A stretch of 64,000 nucleotides of DNA from an uncultured Planctomycetota bacterium (lineage in GTDB: Bacteria > Planctomycetota > Planctomycetia > Isosphaerales > Isosphaeraceae). Positions within the stretch are counted from its first letter, which is position 1, and every line of letters begins with the position of its first letter. The translations under genes and the position numbers were made by a program. The notes under the pieces are model-generated. The model did not search any database. It worked only from the letters and a program-made list of their open reading frames with translations, and was not told the origin of the DNA. Below, piece by piece: positions 42,440 to 49,797 of the stretch. The stretch spans positions 160,001 through 224,000 of the forward strand of contig CAWJTV010000013.1 of NCBI GenBank assembly GCA_963845755.1, given 5' to 3'.

Positions 42440-43493
42440 GGGTTGTTCTGAAATAACGGTCCTGTACACTATGTGGAGCACCAGGAGGCTCCTCGATGAT
42501 CCGCTATGCGACGCTCCGAGTTACCCCCAAGATCTTCCCCGCCTTGACCGGGCTGACTCTCGGGGAATTCGAGCGGCTCGCCGCGGAATTCGCGGCGGCG
42601 CACGCCCGAACCCGGGCCGCCTCGACTCGCACCAAGAAGGGCACGCCCCGCCGCCGCGCCCGGGCGCCGGCGCCCCGCCGTCGCTGGACCTGACCGACCG
42701 GCTGTTGATGGCGCTGGTCTGGCTGCGGATCTATCCCACCTACGAGCTGCTCGGCTGGCTCTTCGGGTTGGAGAAGTCCAACGCCTGGGAGAACGTCCAG
42801 GACGCCTTGGCGGTGCTCGAGACCCTGGCCGACTTCCCGTTCGAGCGGCCCGCCGCCGGCCGCACCCCGCTGGCCACCCCGGCGGCGGTCTTCGCCGCGT
42901 TCCCGGAGGTCAAGATCGTCATCGACGGCAAGGAGCAGCCGTTCCGACGCCCGCAGGGATGGGATCAGCAGAAGCCGTTCTACTCCGGGAAGAAGAAGCG
43001 GCACACGGTCAAGAACCAGGTCGTTTGCACGCCGGAAGGACGGATCGGTGGGGTTTCCGAGACGGTCCCTGGCTCGACCCACGACCTGACGATGATGCGG
43101 GGTGACGGCACGCTGGACCGGCTGGAGGAGGGGGAATCGGCGATGGCCGACAAGGCCTACACCGGAGGCCAGAAGGACCGCCCCGGGACGTCCCTGGTGG
43201 TGCCGACGAGGGCGACGCGAGGCCACCCGCTGACGGCGGAGCAACAGGCGGCGAACCGGGTGATCAGCGGGTACCGGGTGGTGATCGAACCTGTGATGGC
43301 CCAACTGAACCGATTTCAGGTGCTCAAGCAGGTCTTCCGCAGCGCGTTCCAGCGGCACACCGGGGTGATCCGGGTGGTGGCCGCGTTGGTTGACCGGCGG
43401 ATCGCGGCGGTGCCCCTGAAGACCTACGCAGTGAACTGATCCCGAAGGGGGTCAGGGGGACAGAGACGACTGTCGGCTATTCCAGAACAACCC
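42440..43493 (+). mobile_element. IS5-family (ISL2-like, HTH + DDE_Tnp_4) insertion sequence; indel at ~42660
   Basis: 16-bp inverted repeats GGGTTGTTCTGAAATA / TATTCCAGAACAACCC (1 mismatch) with a TA target duplication on both sides. Motifs IDGKEQP, YSGKKKRHT, ADKAY and RVVIE. CDS 42496-43439. Confidence 0.93.
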
Positions 43494-43504
43494 TAGTGTC
43501 TCTC

Positions 43505-43557
43505 GGCTTTGCACAACGAATGCCCCCTGCACAACGATTCACCGGGCTGCACAACGA
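43505..43557. repeat. Three TGCACAACGA direct repeats, candidate transposon end
   Basis: Copies at 43510, 43528 and 43548; the first is preceded by GGCTT. Confidence 0.55.
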
Positions 43558-43903
43558 ATCGAGAATGAAGGAATTCAGAGACGCGCGATTTGGATGCGAA
43601 ACTTGATTGCATGCAAATCGTTGCGATCCACGCCCAATTACAAATGGGGAATACTTCGAGATTTTCAAATTGGGATAAATGGGCAATACTTGATGAAAAT
43701 ACGTGCTACGAATCTCTGTCGAAATCTGTTTCGGTGCAGGAACCTTGTAAGGTGATCCGGCGTTCATTAAGCTATCAAGAAGATCTAGCCGATAGCCACC
43801 GAGGTCACCTCTGGTGGCTATCGGCGCGCGCATGATGCATGCACGCAACTGATCCGAGCCATCACTATTAGTGATGCAGACTGTGGCCACAGGAGAAGAA
43901 GCT

Positions 43904-46482
43904 GTGAACACCCTGGACTTCACTGGCGCACAGCGACGACTCGTGGAATCGGTGCTCACCGCCTTGAGGACGCTTGGATATCGCGATGAACTCGTCGCCG
44001 AAGATTATAAATATCTTGATCGATTCGTAAGTCGCCATCCCCAAAGGCAGATTCGGGCAGCCCTCTTCGGTAGGACTCCTGTATCATATGGGACAGCACT
44101 TATCGGCGTAGCAGAGGCCAATGGGTCACACGGCGCGTACTTTGGTTAACGAGCATCGTTCGCTAGGAGCCCCGGTGGTCTTGGAAATCCAAGATGAAAC
44201 CATCGGGATTTGGGCGGTCAGCAGGGAGGAAGGATCTGCCTATCTTGAGCACAGCGTTGATGAAGTTGGATTTCGGCGGTGGATAACAGACAACGAGAAA
44301 GCTCTCCAGCCGAATGAGTTCTTGCGGACGAAGGAAGGCGTCGGACGCGTCCCTACTTTTTTCCAACCTAGCCTTTTTGCGGGACTCATCCCCGAGTTGG
44401 AATTGAAAATCAGGAAGTCTCTTGATCCGATCTTGCTCCGCGAAATCAAGGCCGGAGTTGATGCGTATAGGGGGGCTAAAGGCTGCGACCCACCAGAACG
44501 AGAGTTATTCAAGCTCGCGTTCTGGATACTGACGGGCAAGGTCTTCGCCGATCGGAATCACAAGGACTTCGCCGATCTCGATTCTCCAGGTAGTCCCGAA
44601 ATCGTTCTCAATCGGGTCGCCAAGCATTACAACCAAACCGAATACAAGTTGTTGAATCATGAGGCCAGAGAAGCCGTGTTCAGCCACGTTTGGGGTCGCA
44701 CGGATTTCCGCAACCTTTCTGTGGAGGTACTCTCTCAGATCTGGTCAAGAACCCTTGTTAGCGAGGAAACTCGGAAGAAGCTAGGTATCCACCGGACGAG
44801 AAGGAGCATCGTTCGTTATATCGTCGATCGCATCCCTTTCGAATCCTTTAATCTGGAGCACAGACGAGTATTAGAGCCGTGTTCGGGCAGTGCGACATTT
44901 CTTGTTGCTGCGCTTGATCGCATGCGCGACATTCCCCCTGAGATCTCCGACCCGGTGGCCCGACATGTTTACTTCCAGCGAATGTTGACCGGATTTGAAC
45001 GAGATCCGTTTGGGGTTGAGATTGGGAGCCTATGTCTCGCGTTGGCCGACTATCCTAATCCAAATGGATGGAACATAAGGCCAAGCAATGTATTCAAATC
45101 GCCAGAATTCGGCCCTGCTTGCCAGGTTGCCAGGATCGTGTTATGCAATCCTCCTTTTGAAGATTTTGATGACGAGGAATACGAAGAAGTGAGGGCGACC
45201 ACAAGACATAAACCTGCGGAGTTGCTTGGCCGCATTCTCGACTCGCTCCATCCGCAAGGGGTGCTTGGCTTCGTTTTGCCACGGTCTTTCCTTGACCACC
45301 GTGGCTACGCGCCGATTCGCAGAAGGATTGTCGAGCGATACGGTAGCATCGACCTCTTGTCCCTCCCCGGGAAAGGATGGGAGCATGCCGACAAGGAGAC
45401 GGTACTCTTGATCGCGACAGATCCTGCCACGCACACGCAAGCAATCGTATCATTTGCGAAGGTGAAAGAGAAGCACTGGCGCGAATTCGAGCGGCTCCAT
45501 GAGGTCGATTTTCGTGCCGAAGAGAGCAAGTCAAGCGAAGACGCTGACAAATCGCTCGCGGTCCTCGAATTGAAAGAGGTTTGGGATTATCTCGCCTACT
45601 GCCCGCAGCTTGGCGAGATGGCAGAGGTTCGAAAGGGGATTGAATGGAGCTTAGACCAAGAAGAGCATCGCGACCTGCTTGTTCGATCAGAACCTCGGGA
45701 TGGCCATGATGATCGTGTTGGTATTGCGCCTCAAGCGTCACCGTTCTTAGCCTTCGAGTGCACCGCCCATTGCTTATCTCAACTTCGATACAGAGTATCA
45801 ACGACGGCCCAACTCATTTGAGCGGTCTTGGGACCAGCCGAAGATTATCCTGAATAGAAACCGCAAATCTCGGCCGGGACCGTGGAAACTCGCAGCATTT
45901 GCTGACTTCGAGGGGCTAGCGTGTTATGAAGCTTTCATCGCCGTATGGCCCAAAGACAACGGAATGATCGTGCCGATCGTCGCTGTCCTCAACGGGCCGG
46001 TCGCTAGCGCATTCGCGGCGGTAAAGGAGACGGGAGCCCATGTCATGGTAAAGACGATTCGCCAAATCCCCGTCCCATTCTTCACGACTCAACAAGCGGA
46101 AGAGATCGGGACGCTCGTGGCGGAGTATCGCAAGGCTATTGGAGCTGCTCATCCGCTTGCTGTCCAGCAAGCTTACGGGGAGGCCGATAGGCTGCTTCGT
46201 CAGATTGACGCAATTGTATTAGAGGCGTATGGCTTGCCGCCGAGGCTTGAACGCGTGCTTTTAGATTACTTCAACGGTTTCAACAACCGGCCGATTCCAT
46301 TTCGCTTCGCCGACTACTTTCCGCATGACTTCAAGCCGTTCTTTTCTCTGAGGGATTGGTTGACTCGGCGCCACGCTCAGGCAACGATCGAACGATTTCG
46401 GGGACAACCCCTGGAATTGCCCAGTCACATCCGCCGAGCGCTGGAATTGGCGACCAATGATGACGACGGGGGCGAAGAATGA
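43904..46482 (+). CDS. N6-adenine DNA methyltransferase with Type IIG-like architecture (~860 aa); indels at ~44130 and ~45765
   Basis: RKKLGIHRT, motif I VLEPCSGSATFL, motif IV CNPPF, GVLGFVLP and a TRD-like C-terminus. AGGAG RBS before GTG 43904. The three ORF pieces join with single-base fixes. Confidence 0.85.
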
Positions 46483-46958
46483 ACGGCTATCTATTCGACA
46501 CGAACATCGTGAGTTTTTGGTTTCAGCAGAAGCCCGCGATAACCTCGCGCGTAGCAGCAATACCGAACGGGAATTTTTTATATATATCTGCTGTCACGAT
46601 AGGTGAAATTGAATTTGGCCATCTAAACATAAACGCCAAGGATCCTGCCAAACAAGCTGCTTTCAGGCGCTGGATTGCCGAGACCTTCCACTCGCACCGT
46701 CTAGAAATTACAAATGCCACCGCCGGGGAATACGCCAAACTCAAGCGAGCAGTTTGTGACACTTATTTCAAAAAAAATAAATATATAGAACTTCACGAAA
46801 ATGCCCAGGCTCATGTTCTGGGCGTGGACGAAAACGACCTTTGGATCGTATCCCAAGCGTACGAGCACGGCTTGAAGTTCGTTACATGCGACAAGATGAC
46901 TAGGATCAAAGAGGTCCTAGGACATATGGTCGATGTAAGCACTTGGCCTCAGGTATGA
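46479..46958 (+). CDS. PIN-domain (VapC-like) nuclease
   Basis: YLFDTNIVS, ISAVTIGEIEFG, DENDLWI and FVTCDK. ATGA overlap with the MTase stop. Confidence 0.92.
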   Translation: MNGYLFDTNIVSFWFQQKPAITSRVAAIPNGNFLYISAVTIGEIEFGHLNINAKDPAKQAAFRRWIAETFHSHRLEITNATAGEYAKLKRAVCDTYFKKNKYIELHENAQAHVLGVDENDLWIVSQAYEHGLKFVTCDKMTRIKEVLGHMVDVSTWPQV

Positions 46959-46964
46959 CCAAGA

Positions 46965-47204
46965 CTATCCTTCTCCGGCTTTCGCCCCTGACGATCGAAG
47001 GAAAGCAACCGACTGCCCAGCCTTCTCCAATTCCCGCCTTGCTACGATCCGTAACCGCTCCCGCAGCCATGCCGAGAGCGAAAGACCTGAGAGCGTAGCG
47101 GCTTCATCGAAAGCCTGCTTCTCGGCGGCTTCCAATCGCACCTGCAACAGCACTCCCTTGGCCCGGTCCAGGTCCTTGGGAGGTCTCCCGCGTTGTTTCT
47201 TCAT
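46965..47204 (-). CDS. Small ribbon-helix-helix-like DNA-binding protein
   Basis: GRPPK, then LQVRL..AEKQAFDEAA..SGLSLSAWLRERL. Confidence 0.75.
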   Translation of the reverse strand: MKKQRGRPPKDLDRAKGVLLQVRLEAAEKQAFDEAATLSGLSLSAWLRERLRIVARRELEKAGQSVAFLRSSGAKAGEG

Positions 47205-47210
47205 GCCAGA

Positions 47211-47278
47211 ATTGTAATGACAAAAAACTTACGGGTCAAGCAGTCAGGTCTTGACTGTAAGTTTTTTGTCATTACAAT
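47211..47278. promoter_or_regulatory. Back-to-back sigma70-like promoters forming a ~29-bp inverted repeat
   Basis: Plus strand TTGACT-16nt-TACAAT (47251-47278); minus strand TTGACC-17nt-TACAAT (47239-47211). Confidence 0.75.
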
Positions 47279-47335
47279 AAATGTGTCATGAACGATGCCA
47301 ACGCGAACCCGACCTTCCTTGGAGGGGTCTGACCC

Positions 47336-47832
47336 ATGTCCGCGGTTGCAACGATCAAGGAGACACTCGATCCAACTGAAACCCGCCGACAGCGCGGGCT
47401 CGCTATTGCGGCCATGACTCGGATCGAACAGAAGAAATCTGGTCTCTGGGCAGTCCCAAGCCAGACCGGTAACGGCGCCTATTGGGTGCGGCTCGACTTG
47501 GAACAACCGACGTGCACCTGCAAGGATTTCGAGGAACGCAGTCAACCGTGCAAGCACGTCTTTGCAGTCCAATTCGTCAAGCAACGGGAATCCCATCCGG
47601 ATGGCACCGAGATCACCACCGAAGTCATGACGGTGGTCAGGCAGACCACAGTCAAGAAGCCGACCTACAAGCAGAACTGGCCTGCCTACAACAAAGCCCA
47701 GACGACCGAGAAGCACCGTTTCCAGGTCTTGCTTGCTGAGTTGTGTCGCGGCATCGTGGAACCTGTGCGCAAGACGACTCGGGGTCAACAGCCTCTCTCG
47801 CTGGCCGATATGGTCTTCTCTGTTGCGTTCAA
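47336..47832 (+). mobile_element. 5' part of a SWIM zinc-finger transposase, truncated at a repeat
   Basis: WAVPSQ, CTCKDF...PCKH (SWIM), TYKQNWPAYNKAQ..EK..F..LL.ELC and LADMVFSVAFK, after which the sequence runs into repeat DNA. Confidence 0.7.
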
Positions 47833-48024
47833 GGGGCCGAAAAGGGGGGCCGAAAAGGGGACGGAACGAATTAACGACCTTTAACAAAACAATTCGCTCC
47901 GTCCGTTTCGCGGGCCCCGACCCCTTTAGCGCAGGGGCCGAAAAAGGGGACGGAACGAATTAACGACCTTTAACAAAACAATTCGCTCCGTCCGTTTCGC
48001 GGGCCCCGACCCCTTTAGCGCAGG
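47832..48024. repeat. Tandem pair of ~89-bp palindromic repeats with a stuttered start
   Basis: GGGGCCGAAAAGGGGACGGAACGAATT...AATTCGCTCCGTCC...CCCCTTTAGCGCAGG occurs twice. Confidence 0.9.
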
Positions 48025-48084
48025 CGGAGAACGGAAGGCGTGAGTCATCGGACATGACCGGCCAACCCAACACAGGAGAACCGG

Positions 48085-48315
48085 ATGGACTGGCAAGATC
48101 GAATCAGCGTGGACCCGAAGGTGCTCGTCGGCAAACCCGTCATCAAGGGGACGCGCATTGCTGTCGAGTTTGTCGTGGACCTTCTGGGCCGAGGGTGGAC
48201 GACGGAGCAGATTCTCCGTGAATACGATCACCTGACCGCCGAAGACATCCAGGCGTGTTTGGCCTACGCGAGCGAAGTCCTCAAGTCGGAGCGGGTGTAC
48301 CTCTTGCCGACATGA
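48085..48315 (+). CDS. DUF433 family antitoxin-like protein
   Basis: RISVDPKVLVGKPVIKGTRIAV...LTAEDIQACLAYA. Confidence 0.95.
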   Translation: MDWQDRISVDPKVLVGKPVIKGTRIAVEFVVDLLGRGWTTEQILREYDHLTAEDIQACLAYASEVLKSERVYLLPT

Positions 48316-48326
48316 AGGATCTGGCG

Positions 48327-48725
48327 ATGCGCTTTCTCGCCGATGAGAACGTCACCGGGACCGTGCTTCAGGAATTGCGGCAACGGGGGCATGATGTGCT
48401 CTCGGTCAAGGAGTCGATGCGCTCCGAGCGGGATGATGTGATCTTGGCCCGTGCCCAGGCGGAACAGCGAATCGTCATCACTCACGATAAGGACTTCGGT
48501 GAGTTGGCCTTCCGGTCGCAACTGCCTGCTTCCTGCGGCGTCATCTTGATTCGGTTGGCAGGGAGCGAATCCGATACGGACAACCAACGGATTCTCGAAG
48601 CCTTGGAGAGCCGGACGGATTGGACCGGGCATTTTTCGGTCATCACCGACAACAGGATCAGAATGCGAGCGTTGCCCGTAGTTCCGCCGCCCAGAGGTGC
48701 AAGACCGAGAAAGCGCAAGAAATGA
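48327..48725 (+). CDS. DUF5615 PIN-like toxin
   Basis: MRFLADENV...GHDV...DDVIL..A..EQRIVITHDKDFGEL. Confidence 0.93.
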   Translation: MRFLADENVTGTVLQELRQRGHDVLSVKESMRSERDDVILARAQAEQRIVITHDKDFGELAFRSQLPASCGVILIRLAGSESDTDNQRILEALESRTDWTGHFSVITDNRIRMRALPVVPPPRGARPRKRKK

Positions 48726-48901
48726 CCGACGCCAGACACAACCTAATATATAAGTAATATCATATTCTGGGAAAACCGGGGACATAGGGAAAACCGGGAA
48801 GGGATGGGACCCGGGATCAAACTTTGTTATTTGTTTCCGGGCGGCTCGCTCATCGGCGAGTCAAACGGCTTTCGACCCTTCTCGAACAGACATTCACCCC
48901 A

Positions 48902-49797
48902 GCGCGGAATTGCGCGGAATTGGTGTCAGCGCGGAATTGGTGTCAGTGTGCGCCGTGAAAAGGTTTCGGATTTCCAGGGGTAACCATGCCCCCCGGCAAC
49001 TGGGTCGCTCCAGCCGGAAGCTATCGGAGCGGCGGTGGAGGTAACGAAACCGTCGGAGCCTTCGAGACAACGGGCCACAAGGTGGTCCGGCGATCAGGCA
49101 GGCCGTAACGCGAGTGAACGTTGAGCAGGCCTCGAAACATTTAATGTGGGCGCCGACCCGGCACTGACACGGGGAAGGCTGACATCGCTGACGATCAAGG
49201 CGAGGCTGGAATACGCCGGACCACGAGCGAACCGTCCCAGCGAGCCCGCCGGGGTAATGACGACGGCATGCCTGGATGGGGAAACCGAAGCAACACGGGA
49301 AACCCGCGCGGTGAGTCGCGTGGACTCAACCGGACGCCCGTGAGGGACAGGCCGGGCCGCCTGGGGTGGCGGAGAGCCTCGTAGTACCGTGGACGCCGGG
49401 TAACTCCGGTCGAGGGAAGGGGACTCAGTTCAAGGCCCGTGTCGGAAGGGGCCGACAGCCGGGAGATTGGCGCAAGCCTGCAAACTCCACCCACGGCTGG
49501 GACGTTCCGGAAGGCATGACATCTCATCGGCTCACCAGCCTACGTGGGTCGGTGAATGGGGCGCCTTGTCCGAGAGCCGGGTGCGGGAAATCCGCCTGCC
49601 CGGTTCGATGAGCGGGGTGTGGAAACGGGGCATGGTCGAGATGGTGGGACACCCGCAGACGAAAGGGCGGGCTAACAGGGGAAAACAAACTTCGACCTAA
49701 ACTACCGCGCCACACCTCGACTCTACTCATTTTTCCGCCGGAAAAATGAACTGACACCAGACACGACCGGAAAAATGAACTGACACCAGACACGACC
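48902..49797. repeat. Palindromic repeat cluster interrupted by the intron
   Basis: Left: stuttered GCGCGGAATT(GGTGTCA) three times. Right: GGAAAAATGAACTGACACCAGACACGACC twice. Confidence 0.85.
48948..49726 (+). ncRNA. ORF-less group II intron (779 nt)
   Basis: 5' end GTGCG; DIII-like GTAGTACCG...GGGAAGG; DV GAGCCGGGTGCGGGAAATCCGCCTGCCCGGTTC (49574-49606) with AGC triad; DVI with bulged A49720; 3' end CTCTAC; EBS1 at 49163-49170 matches the 5' exon. Confidence 0.93.

Follow-up and report, generated by a model that had tools for sequence, protein, structure and literature searches.

A non-autonomous group II intron lodged in the arm of a REP-type palindrome of a planctomycete genome

The locus and its intron

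The window, a 64,000-nt stretch of DNA (G000:C13:160001-224000; GenBank contig CAWJTV010000013.1) from an uncultured planctomycete of the Isosphaeraceae, belongs to a draft genome (G000) of 14.27 Mb with 64% GC, assembled in 49 contigs and 88% complete. Within the left arm of a palindrome of the repetitive extragenic palindromic (REP) type, it carries a 779-nt group II intron that has no open reading frame (ORF); the ribozyme is structurally intact, and nearly the whole gene for the intron-encoded protein (IEP) has been lost. The element is a well-preserved non-autonomous group II intron residing at its cognate REP-type site, and it belongs with known kinds of element rather than being a new kind. 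Its parts and those of the surrounding repeat are given below, with EBS and IBS standing for exon- and intron-binding sites, DI to DVI (or D1 to D6) for intron domains, and TRF for Tandem Repeats Finder.

48902..48947, plus strand: left arm of the REP-type element, forming the 5' exon, with nested direct half-units GCGCGGAATT / GCGCGGAATTGGTGTCAG / CGCGGAATTGGTGTCAGT
48936-48940, plus strand: candidate IBS2 in the 5' exon
48941-48947, plus strand (48940-48947 as 8 nt): IBS1 in the 5' exon
48948..49726, plus strand: the intron itself, 779 nt without an ORF, a IIB-like group II element of the Rfam D1D4-4 type, with 5' GTGCG and 3' CTAC
48974..49113, plus strand: hit of the Rfam model RF02003 (group-II-D1D4-4), scoring 81.7 bits (E 2.5e-16; gathering score 49)
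49141..49145, plus strand: tentative candidate EBS2, UUAAU, homologous to the GAACUGAC region of intron G001_L038
49163..49170, plus strand: EBS1, ACTGACAC, RNA ACUGACA[C], within the loop that a CCCG/CGGG stem closes
49475..49519, plus strand: remnant of the IEP reading frame, SLQTPPTAGTFRKA and stop, 14 codons, from translation and alignment to ORF-bearing copies
49574..49606, plus strand: DV, 33 nt, AGC triad at 49575-49577, from the cmscan alignment and the fold
49610..49723, plus strand: DVI, with a 13-bp basal stem (3 + 10 bp) and a distal extension of ~85 nt, from the fold and alignments
49727..49759, plus strand: 3' exon, comprising the left-arm remainder TCATTTTTCC, the loop GCC and the right arm GGAAAAATGAACTGACACCA
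49740..49797, minus strand: two right-arm units, period 29 (TRF)

The group II nature of the element, proposed in a first-pass annotation made from the sequence alone, was borne out by the Rfam search and by RNA folding: the D1-D4 match exceeds its gathering score, and 145 of the 158 family-consensus base pairs of D1-D3 are retained. The DV fold is the canonical hairpin, at -21.9 kcal/mol (z -4.3); it contains the AGC triad and a bulge of 2 nt and is capped by a loop of 5 nt. The branch-point A49720 is bulged in the DVI fold, 7 nt before the intron 3' end; with the GTGCG and CTAC termini also in place, DV, DVI, the branch A and both ends are intact, as had been annotated. DIV measures ~100 nt (about 49465-49570), and its protein-coding content consists of the 14-codon remnant, which is homologous to the opening codons of the family IEP, in agreement with the earlier reading of this frame as an IEP-like stub. 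The exclusion of class IIC likewise stood, on the grounds of the 33-nt DV with AGC, the presence of an EBS2 region, and an insertion point in the hairpin arm rather than past the hairpin.

The distal extension of DVI is patchily distributed among related introns: ~72 nt of it, in the stretch 49623-49709, are found in the window copy and in the copies of contig C22, C6:62477, G017, G015 and G007, and are missing from the copies of G003 and G021 as well as from L163, an ORF-less copy with 91% identity. Relative to the C22 copy, the 3' 160 nt of the window intron are 94% identical and the 5' 549 nt just 79%; this contrast, together with the patchy extension, suggests recombination between co-resident introns.

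Pairing between the intron and its exons

The loop at 49163..49170 is the exact 8-nt complement of the final exon bases, GTGTCAGT. Its assignment as EBS1, first made on this complementarity, is reinforced by covariation among 38 aligned family copies from 13 genomes, collapsed to 29 distinct exon/loop combinations: the loop columns pair with a mean of 5.48 of the last 7 exon bases, against 2.92 +/- 0.27 when the exons are shuffled among introns, and none of the 5000 shuffles reaches the observed value, a result that is no true probability given that the family copies are kin. Compensatory switches are found in the copies on C22 (TATGTCC/GGACATA) and C6 (TGCTAT/ATAGCA), and a double compensatory switch within a single genome, G009 (AGACAGT/ACTGTCT versus AGACTGT/ACAGTCT).

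A second variable region lies ~20 nt upstream of EBS1 and covaries in relatives. Intron G001_L038, of the sister species, carries there the sequence GAACUGAC, complementary over 8 bp to its own exon GUCAGUUC at positions -13..-6; the homologous region of the window intron contains the candidate EBS2, which faces the exon bases AUUGG at -12..-8 with two G-U and three A-U pairs. The intron occupies its own cognate homing site in the left arm, where EBS1 pairs with the UGUCAGU of AAUUGG-UGUCAGU and EBS2 probably pairs with the AAUUGG portion. This sequence makes up the conserved left arm of the palindromic element, which spans ~45-60 bp.

The palindromic repeat

With the intron taken out, 48938-48947 and 49727-49759 together form a perfect hairpin, whose stem has 20 bp and whose loop has 3 nt, as had been noted; its folding energy under DNA parameters is -21.5 kcal/mol, and its z-score relative to 500 shuffles is -11.9. 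The target of the intron in the repeat arm is the junction of AATTGGTGTCAGT and TCATTTTTCC. The half-units of the left arm are detected by TRF with a period of 17 x 2.1, and their unit architecture is that of empty elements in the sister species. The minus strand of each right-arm unit holds a free copy of the 20-nt target (49740-49759 in one unit, 49769-49788 in the other); these are the two unoccupied sites that the first-pass annotation had placed just downstream.

The distribution of the repeat was surveyed with the pattern GGTGTCAGTTCNTTTTTYC, allowing at most one mismatch and using the reversed pattern as control. Of 41 genomes of the bacterial family, 18 contain the pattern, and the control gives 0 in all; the numbers of occurrences include the following.

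G001 (sister species, same genus): 137
G016: 20
G012: 12
G041: 11
G015: 10
G000: 3 (half-sites at 2 loci)

All 21 repeat loci inspected in G001 and G012 are empty and have the architecture of the window locus minus the intron: direct half-units such as GCGGAAATTGGTGTCAG, in variable number (up to 15), lead to GGTGTCAGT joined directly to TCATTTTTCC, which is followed by a 4-5-nt loop and an inverted arm that is likewise accompanied by direct copies; the empty elements of G001 fold to 24-25-bp hairpins. Within G000, the 20-mer and shorter cores were found at the window locus only, and BLAST of both intron flanks gave no further matches; one further member of the repeat, at C36:189835, bears a compensating change in both arms (GGTGTGAGT/ACTCACACC). 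The notion of a multicopy REP-like repeat holds for the sister species, with its 137 half-sites, and does not hold for G000, which has the window locus and one variant.

The connection with transposases places the palindrome among true REP-type repeats, because its copies flank genes for Y1 transposases resembling the REP-associated tyrosine transposases (RAYTs); the earlier description of the palindrome as REP-like is thereby strengthened, as it is by the abundance of the repeat in the sister species. Genes of the Y1_Tnp family number 10 in G000, 13 in G001, 9 in G016 and 32 in G012. One of them, on G012:C59, has four direct GGTGTCAGTTCATTTTTCT units upstream and inverted GGAAAAATGAACTGACACC units downstream, and three in G001 (C13:1030326, C1:12935 and C33:196059) lie 0.07-0.9 kb from repeat units; a repeat hairpin next to a RAYT-like gene reads GGTGTCAGTTCATTTTTCC. 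Two repeat-adjacent proteins match Pfam Y1_Tnp with 55-58 bits, and the same two match NCBIfam REP_Tyr_transpos with 78 and 69 bits, under the cutoff of 80. No Y1_Tnp or RAYT-like gene was found on the contig of the window. In G000, an array with the core GG[GT]G[AT]CA lies no more than 1 kb from 4 of the 10 Y1_Tnp matches, the share among random positions being 3.4% (p 2e-4, for a core that was picked after inspection of the data). One G001 intron and a 33-nt intron stub in G000:C34 are situated between REP units and a RAYT-like gene.

Arrays of this core are spread genome-wide in G000 as many short tandem or inverted arrays with locus-specific units, at ~45 TRF loci or, by a looser definition, at 247 loci. 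Examples are C34:638964-639108, C36:198409-198692, C18:2370-2626 and C21:80587-80751, with units such as CCAAAAAGGGGGACAGG (x8) or GGGGAATCAAAGGGGTCAGG, the latter direct and then inverted, and some arrays precede a conserved GCGCATATCGACAA... sequence. The idea that the intron itself makes the short tandem half-units was ruled out, as such arrays are frequent without introns and their break points vary. Short intron 5' stubs occur between repeat units at G000:C34:636760-636800, in L155 (G097:C1) at ~1510-1570 and in L002 (G012:C35) at 1340-1500; they consist of 33 nt, of ~58 nt or of GTGCG alone, and are truncated at the 3' side, the reverse of what is expected of an abortive reverse transcription product. 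In L173 (G012:C59), 15 bases at 1119-1133 equal the intron 5' end (GTGCGCCGTGCAAAG) in the 3' part of a frameshifted RAYT-like gene, a match that could reflect chance, an intron stub or sequence common to both.

The intron family and its ORF-less members

Of 24 other genomes of the bacterial family, 16 have members of the intron family; 16 genomes representing other families of the class have none. Full copies measure ~2.0 kb and encode an IEP of 406-432 aa with reverse transcriptase (RT) and maturase (GIIM) domains and without an endonuclease domain; the best plasmid matches of this IEP are 55-63% identical. Association with repeats extends beyond the window copy: the core motif lies within 25 nt upstream of 14 of 34 5' junctions, against 2.8% of control windows, and direct repeats 9 nt or longer occur inside 60 nt at nine junctions, against 1.6% of controls, in a count that excludes copies not matched to intron position 4 or near a locus end. 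Three introns (G012_L002, G001_L020 and G001_L038) occupy a position 7 nt further into the same GGTGTCAG repeat, after GGTGTCAG[TA]TC..TTT; the G012 intron is preceded there by 5-6 tandem units, and two such introns are found in G001, of which L038 pairs with the repeat over 8 bp by way of its EBS2 region. The two other intron families of G000 do not sit at such repeats. One of them, IIC-like, is clustered at C47:6600-19600 and C41:22400-29600, with 4 copies in 13 kb on C47; each copy comes after a conserved GC-rich hairpin, and the copy at C47:17974 abuts the 5' end of the next intron.

A scan of metagenomes for the EBS1 motif of the window intron yielded five contigs. Three of them (L162, L164 and L165) hold ORF-bearing copies with an identical EBS1 motif, so that the RT-encoding relatives anticipated by the first-pass annotation do exist; the IEP match of L162 is unbroken over 457 aa and its 3' exon starts with TCATTTTATTCC, and L164 and L165 are inserted after CCAGTGTCAGT and AAATGGTGTCGGT, respectively. 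Another contig, L163, carries an ORF-less copy that is 91% identical to the window intron, has the same DIV remnant and can be aligned with it base for base through the deletion region, at a different site (after ...CAGGTGTCGGT, with one G-U in the pairing). The two differ at 41 of 544 aligned D1-D3 columns; 15 base pairs are affected, and 11 of these pair in both copies, 2 of them through a double change. Since L163 has the same remnant elsewhere, the ORF-less form probably represents a lineage that moved after the loss of the ORF, not local decay; the remnant shared at two sites resembles that of non-autonomous introns of the TeI3 type, discussed below.

In G000 itself, a 5' fragment 99.5% identical to the window intron (C5:506492-506689) lies at another, non-repeat site after the same GGTGTCAGT exon. 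This C5 copy is cut at intron position 198 by a foreign element (region G000:C5:506300-506492, minus strand), which opens with a perfect 41-nt hairpin (ACTTTCTAAATCCACGGCC...GGCCGTGGATTTAGAAAGT). The sites of C5, L163 and L164 have IBS1 in common, as GGTGTC(A/G)GT, and do not share the palindrome; the earlier equation of target with palindrome does not extend to them.

Three more ORF-less copies, two in G003 and one in G021, form a clade of their own with 100/100 support. A single origin of all ORF-less copies was tried and rejected: in a tree of 33 copies, from which five short or truncated rows (C5, C11, L012, L014 and L038) were omitted, the approximately unbiased (AU) test rejects one clade (p 0.003). 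The deletion end points, within ~20-30 nt of one another, are too alike for deletion events to be counted.

Origin and present state of the intron

The account that is probably correct is that a IIB-like intron of an endonuclease-less family, itself non-autonomous, retrohomed into the REP element with an RT supplied in trans and is now probably stranded. In such a process, the excised intron RNA would be bound by the RT/maturase of a related ORF-bearing intron, would reverse-splice into the repeat arm at the junction of GGTGTCAGT and TCATTTT, and would be copied into DNA; as the IEP has no endonuclease domain, priming would presumably be supplied by the replication fork. The repeat being intergenic, the insertion would be harmless, and the intron could be spliced, as predicted from its sequence, out of read-through transcripts of the upstream gene on the plus strand.

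Several observations weigh against this account. The search of G000 with an intact IEP of the sister species (tblastn) found only split cognate copies, on C22 and C6, every other IEP of the genome being ~27% identical to the query. The G001 genome has 137 free targets and no intron with the EBS1 of the window intron. Among 121 genomes of the family, the window intron is the only full-length copy of its EBS1 lineage, and the other members, in G080, G097, G002 and C5, are truncated; a junction pattern search of the same genomes gave 9 matches outside G000 and 9 with the reversed-pattern control, 3 of the matches being real intron junctions (one in G080 and two in G097), all truncated. The window copy also sits on a long branch, of 0.17 against a median of 0.018. 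With only two target loci in G000, the phrase "multicopy landing pad" misdescribes the present host. Regarding anatomy and pairing, the match to the DV/DVI model RF00029 (49572-49702) falls just short of the gathering score of 40, at 37.5 bits, on account of a large insertion in DVI; the EBS2 assignment amounts to five pairs, two of them G-U; and in the three related introns at the GGTGTCAG repeat (L002, L020 and L038), EBS1 pairs poorly with the exon ends.

As to the supply of RT, the copy on C22 (G000:C22:3-4064, minus strand) is 4062 nt long, on a contig that stops 2 nt past the intron 3' end, and its IEP is broken in RT motif 4, between …GTPQG and GVISPLL…, by an insertion of ~2 kb with a frameshifted frame resembling a large serine recombinase. 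Intact IEPs of the cognate type are found in G001 and in metagenome contigs, and, the assembly being 88% complete, one may be missing from it. The first-pass proposal of an element mobilised in trans at present is not supported as it stood, the only cognate RT genes of the assembly (C22 and C6) being broken, and for the same reason the intron is probably stranded in this genome; the overall mechanism it envisaged appears right in outline, with a landing pad that is near single-locus in G000 and no working RT in the assembly.

The absence of an intact cognate IEP from the assembly, the single full copy with its long terminal branch, and the mostly truncated relics among relatives of the EBS1 lineage would also fit an origin in situ, in which an ORF-bearing intron homed here, lost its ORF locally, never moved without it and is now inert; recurrent loss of the ORF in the family, whose ORF-less copies are not one clade by the AU test, points the same way. 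This possibility is nevertheless regarded as unlikely, since L163, a 91%-identical copy from a different organism and a different site, has this DIV remnant too, the divergence between the two copies keeps pairing in 11 of the 15 changed pairs, and the 145 consensus pairs retained out of 158 fall inside the range of ORF-bearing copies (133-155).

Much less credible is a structure-guided insertion of the IIC kind, in which the DNA hairpin itself would be recognised and base pairing would be secondary. The target is indeed a strong hairpin, the IEP lacks an endonuclease domain as in class IIC, and the three related introns just mentioned occupy a repeat without good EBS1-exon pairing; but the window intron is inserted within the 5' arm, not downstream of the stem, and has a 33-nt DV with AGC, whereas IIC introns have a shortened DV. 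The 8-nt EBS1 match and the family-wide covariation speak against it as well, as do the non-palindromic sites of C5, L163 and L164, which share just GGTGTC(A/G)GT, and the true IIC-like introns of G000 follow a different hairpin of their own. Finally, a ribozyme kept not as a selfish element but for a function of the host or of the REP/RAYT system, for instance in processing transcripts, would agree with the structure-preserving divergence after ORF loss and with the position in a RAYT-linked REP family, but is highly improbable for an RNA with a single full copy, missing from the 137 elements of the sister species, with truncated fragments as relatives and no conserved genomic neighbourhood found.

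Comparison with known systems

Reportedly, RmInt1 of Sinorhizobium meliloti is an intron with an endonuclease-less RT/maturase that propagates by homing to a mobile element present in multiple copies, ISRm2011-2; it is said to be autonomous and to target the coding region of that insertion sequence (IS), whereas the window intron is ORF-less and its target is a non-coding palindromic REP.

The closest described parallel to ORF loss is provided by the 17 TeI3 introns of Thermosynechococcus elongatus, which go back to a single deletion and owe their mobility to "driver" IEPs (Mohr et al. 2010, PMC2882425). According to that study, TeI3 introns have, like the window intron, a near-complete deletion of the IEP ORF in DIV (keeping N- and C-terminal remnants), good EBS/IBS pairing with their exons, mostly intergenic or mobile-DNA targets, a reliance on the IEPs of related introns, and a lineage that moved after the deletion. 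They differ in being chloroplast-like (CL)/IIB introns with endonuclease-containing relatives, in their 17 copies in one genome and in the experimental demonstration of the driver IEPs (PMC2882425), whereas the window intron, known here from its sequence, has one full copy, broken cognate IEPs, no endonuclease and a REP palindrome as target. ORF-less bacterial group II introns are called rare and usually co-resident with related IEP-encoding introns (PMC4424553).

Resemblance to IIE and IIF introns is found in the ribozyme. These are described as compact IIB-like ribozymes of 450-700 nt without the IEP, with EBS1 and EBS2 in DId, endonuclease-less IEPs and, specifically in IIF, long structured D6 stems (Nagy et al. 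2013, PMC3753933). The window intron is likewise compact, IIB-like and associated with an endonuclease-less IEP, and has a long DVI like IIF, a likeness by description, not by IEP phylogeny. Introns of class IIC, which the same paper describes as lacking EBS2 and part of EBS1 (PMC3753933), share with the window intron an endonuclease-less IEP and, including IIC-attC, the use of multicopy harmless DNA hairpin motifs (PMC4424553); they insert after the hairpin, whereas the window intron inserts within the stem by a pairing of 8 + 5 nt and has a 33-nt DV with AGC.

REPs are the specific target of several IS (IS1397, ISPpu9/10, ISPsy8 and ISPa11), and a group II intron of P. putida had 2 of 9 copies scored at REPs (Tobes & Pareja 2006, PMC1525189). 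The likeness lies in a mobile element with the REP as its specific target (PMC1525189); these IS are DNA transposons, whereas here EBS/IBS pairing between RNA and DNA is involved, and several intron lineages appear fitted to distinct repeat variants or to distinct positions within them. A literature search in which subscription journals were poorly covered turned up no paper dealing with group II introns of Isosphaeraceae or Gemmata, and none describing an ORF-less intron inside a palindromic repeat.

Possible specialisation on REP elements

A broader interpretation, put forward tentatively and somewhat doubtful at this stage, is that of a planctomycete family of endonuclease-less IIB-like introns specialised on the REPs of RAYT transposases, in which EBS1 and EBS2 would be tuned to REP variants (GGTGTCAGT, GGGGACATA, GGGGTCA...) and arm positions, and ORF-less derivatives would parasitise both the RT-encoding introns and the REP/RAYT system. 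The review PMC4424553 distinguishes three target specificities of bacterial introns, namely homing sites, terminators and attC; if the interpretation is true, REPs would be a fourth beside unique homing sites, terminators and attC, a base-pair-guided "repeat-homing" counterpart of the IIC strategy for which REP expansions, such as the 137 free sites of G001, would be an open niche. Should the specialisation be general, the family would also offer naturally retargeted EBS/IBS pairs for the study of endonuclease-less site choice in hairpin-forming DNA. At the level of the window intron, an ORF-less lineage with structure-preserving divergence is present at more than one site, and its homing site in the arm of a REP-type palindrome ties together two selfish systems, group II retroelements and RAYT/REP, that are seldom considered jointly; it shows that a dependent genetic parasite can lodge harmlessly within other repeated DNA.

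Surroundings of the locus

A conserved genomic neighbourhood around the intron was not found in the comparison with the sister species G001. An empty orthologous site was sought there; the upstream flank has no counterpart, and only the gene downstream of the intron locus finds a match (74%), at another position. None of the public sequencing runs searched contains the locus, the best share being 0.16; contigs from two DNA and two RNA soil runs covered only conserved intron cores, from other organisms. Mobile and defence-type genes are abundant near the intron, at 42471-48725 of the window, as follows.

42471-43439: DDE_Tnp_4 transposase
44121-45821: N6 DNA methylase
46479-46958: PIN-domain protein
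47336-47884: SWIM zinc-finger protein
48255-48725: DUF5615/PIN-like protein

Between these genes and the intron, ~120-180 nt upstream of the latter (48768-48830), lie the sequences GGGAAAACCGGGGACATAG and GGGATCAAACTTTGTT, which look like the 5' exons of two other lineages of the family, that of C22 (ending in ...AAAAACGGGGACATA) and that of C36/C1 (ending in ...GGGGTCAAACTTTG); by this resemblance, the intergenic region looks like a cluster of differing REP-type targets, those two being unoccupied here.

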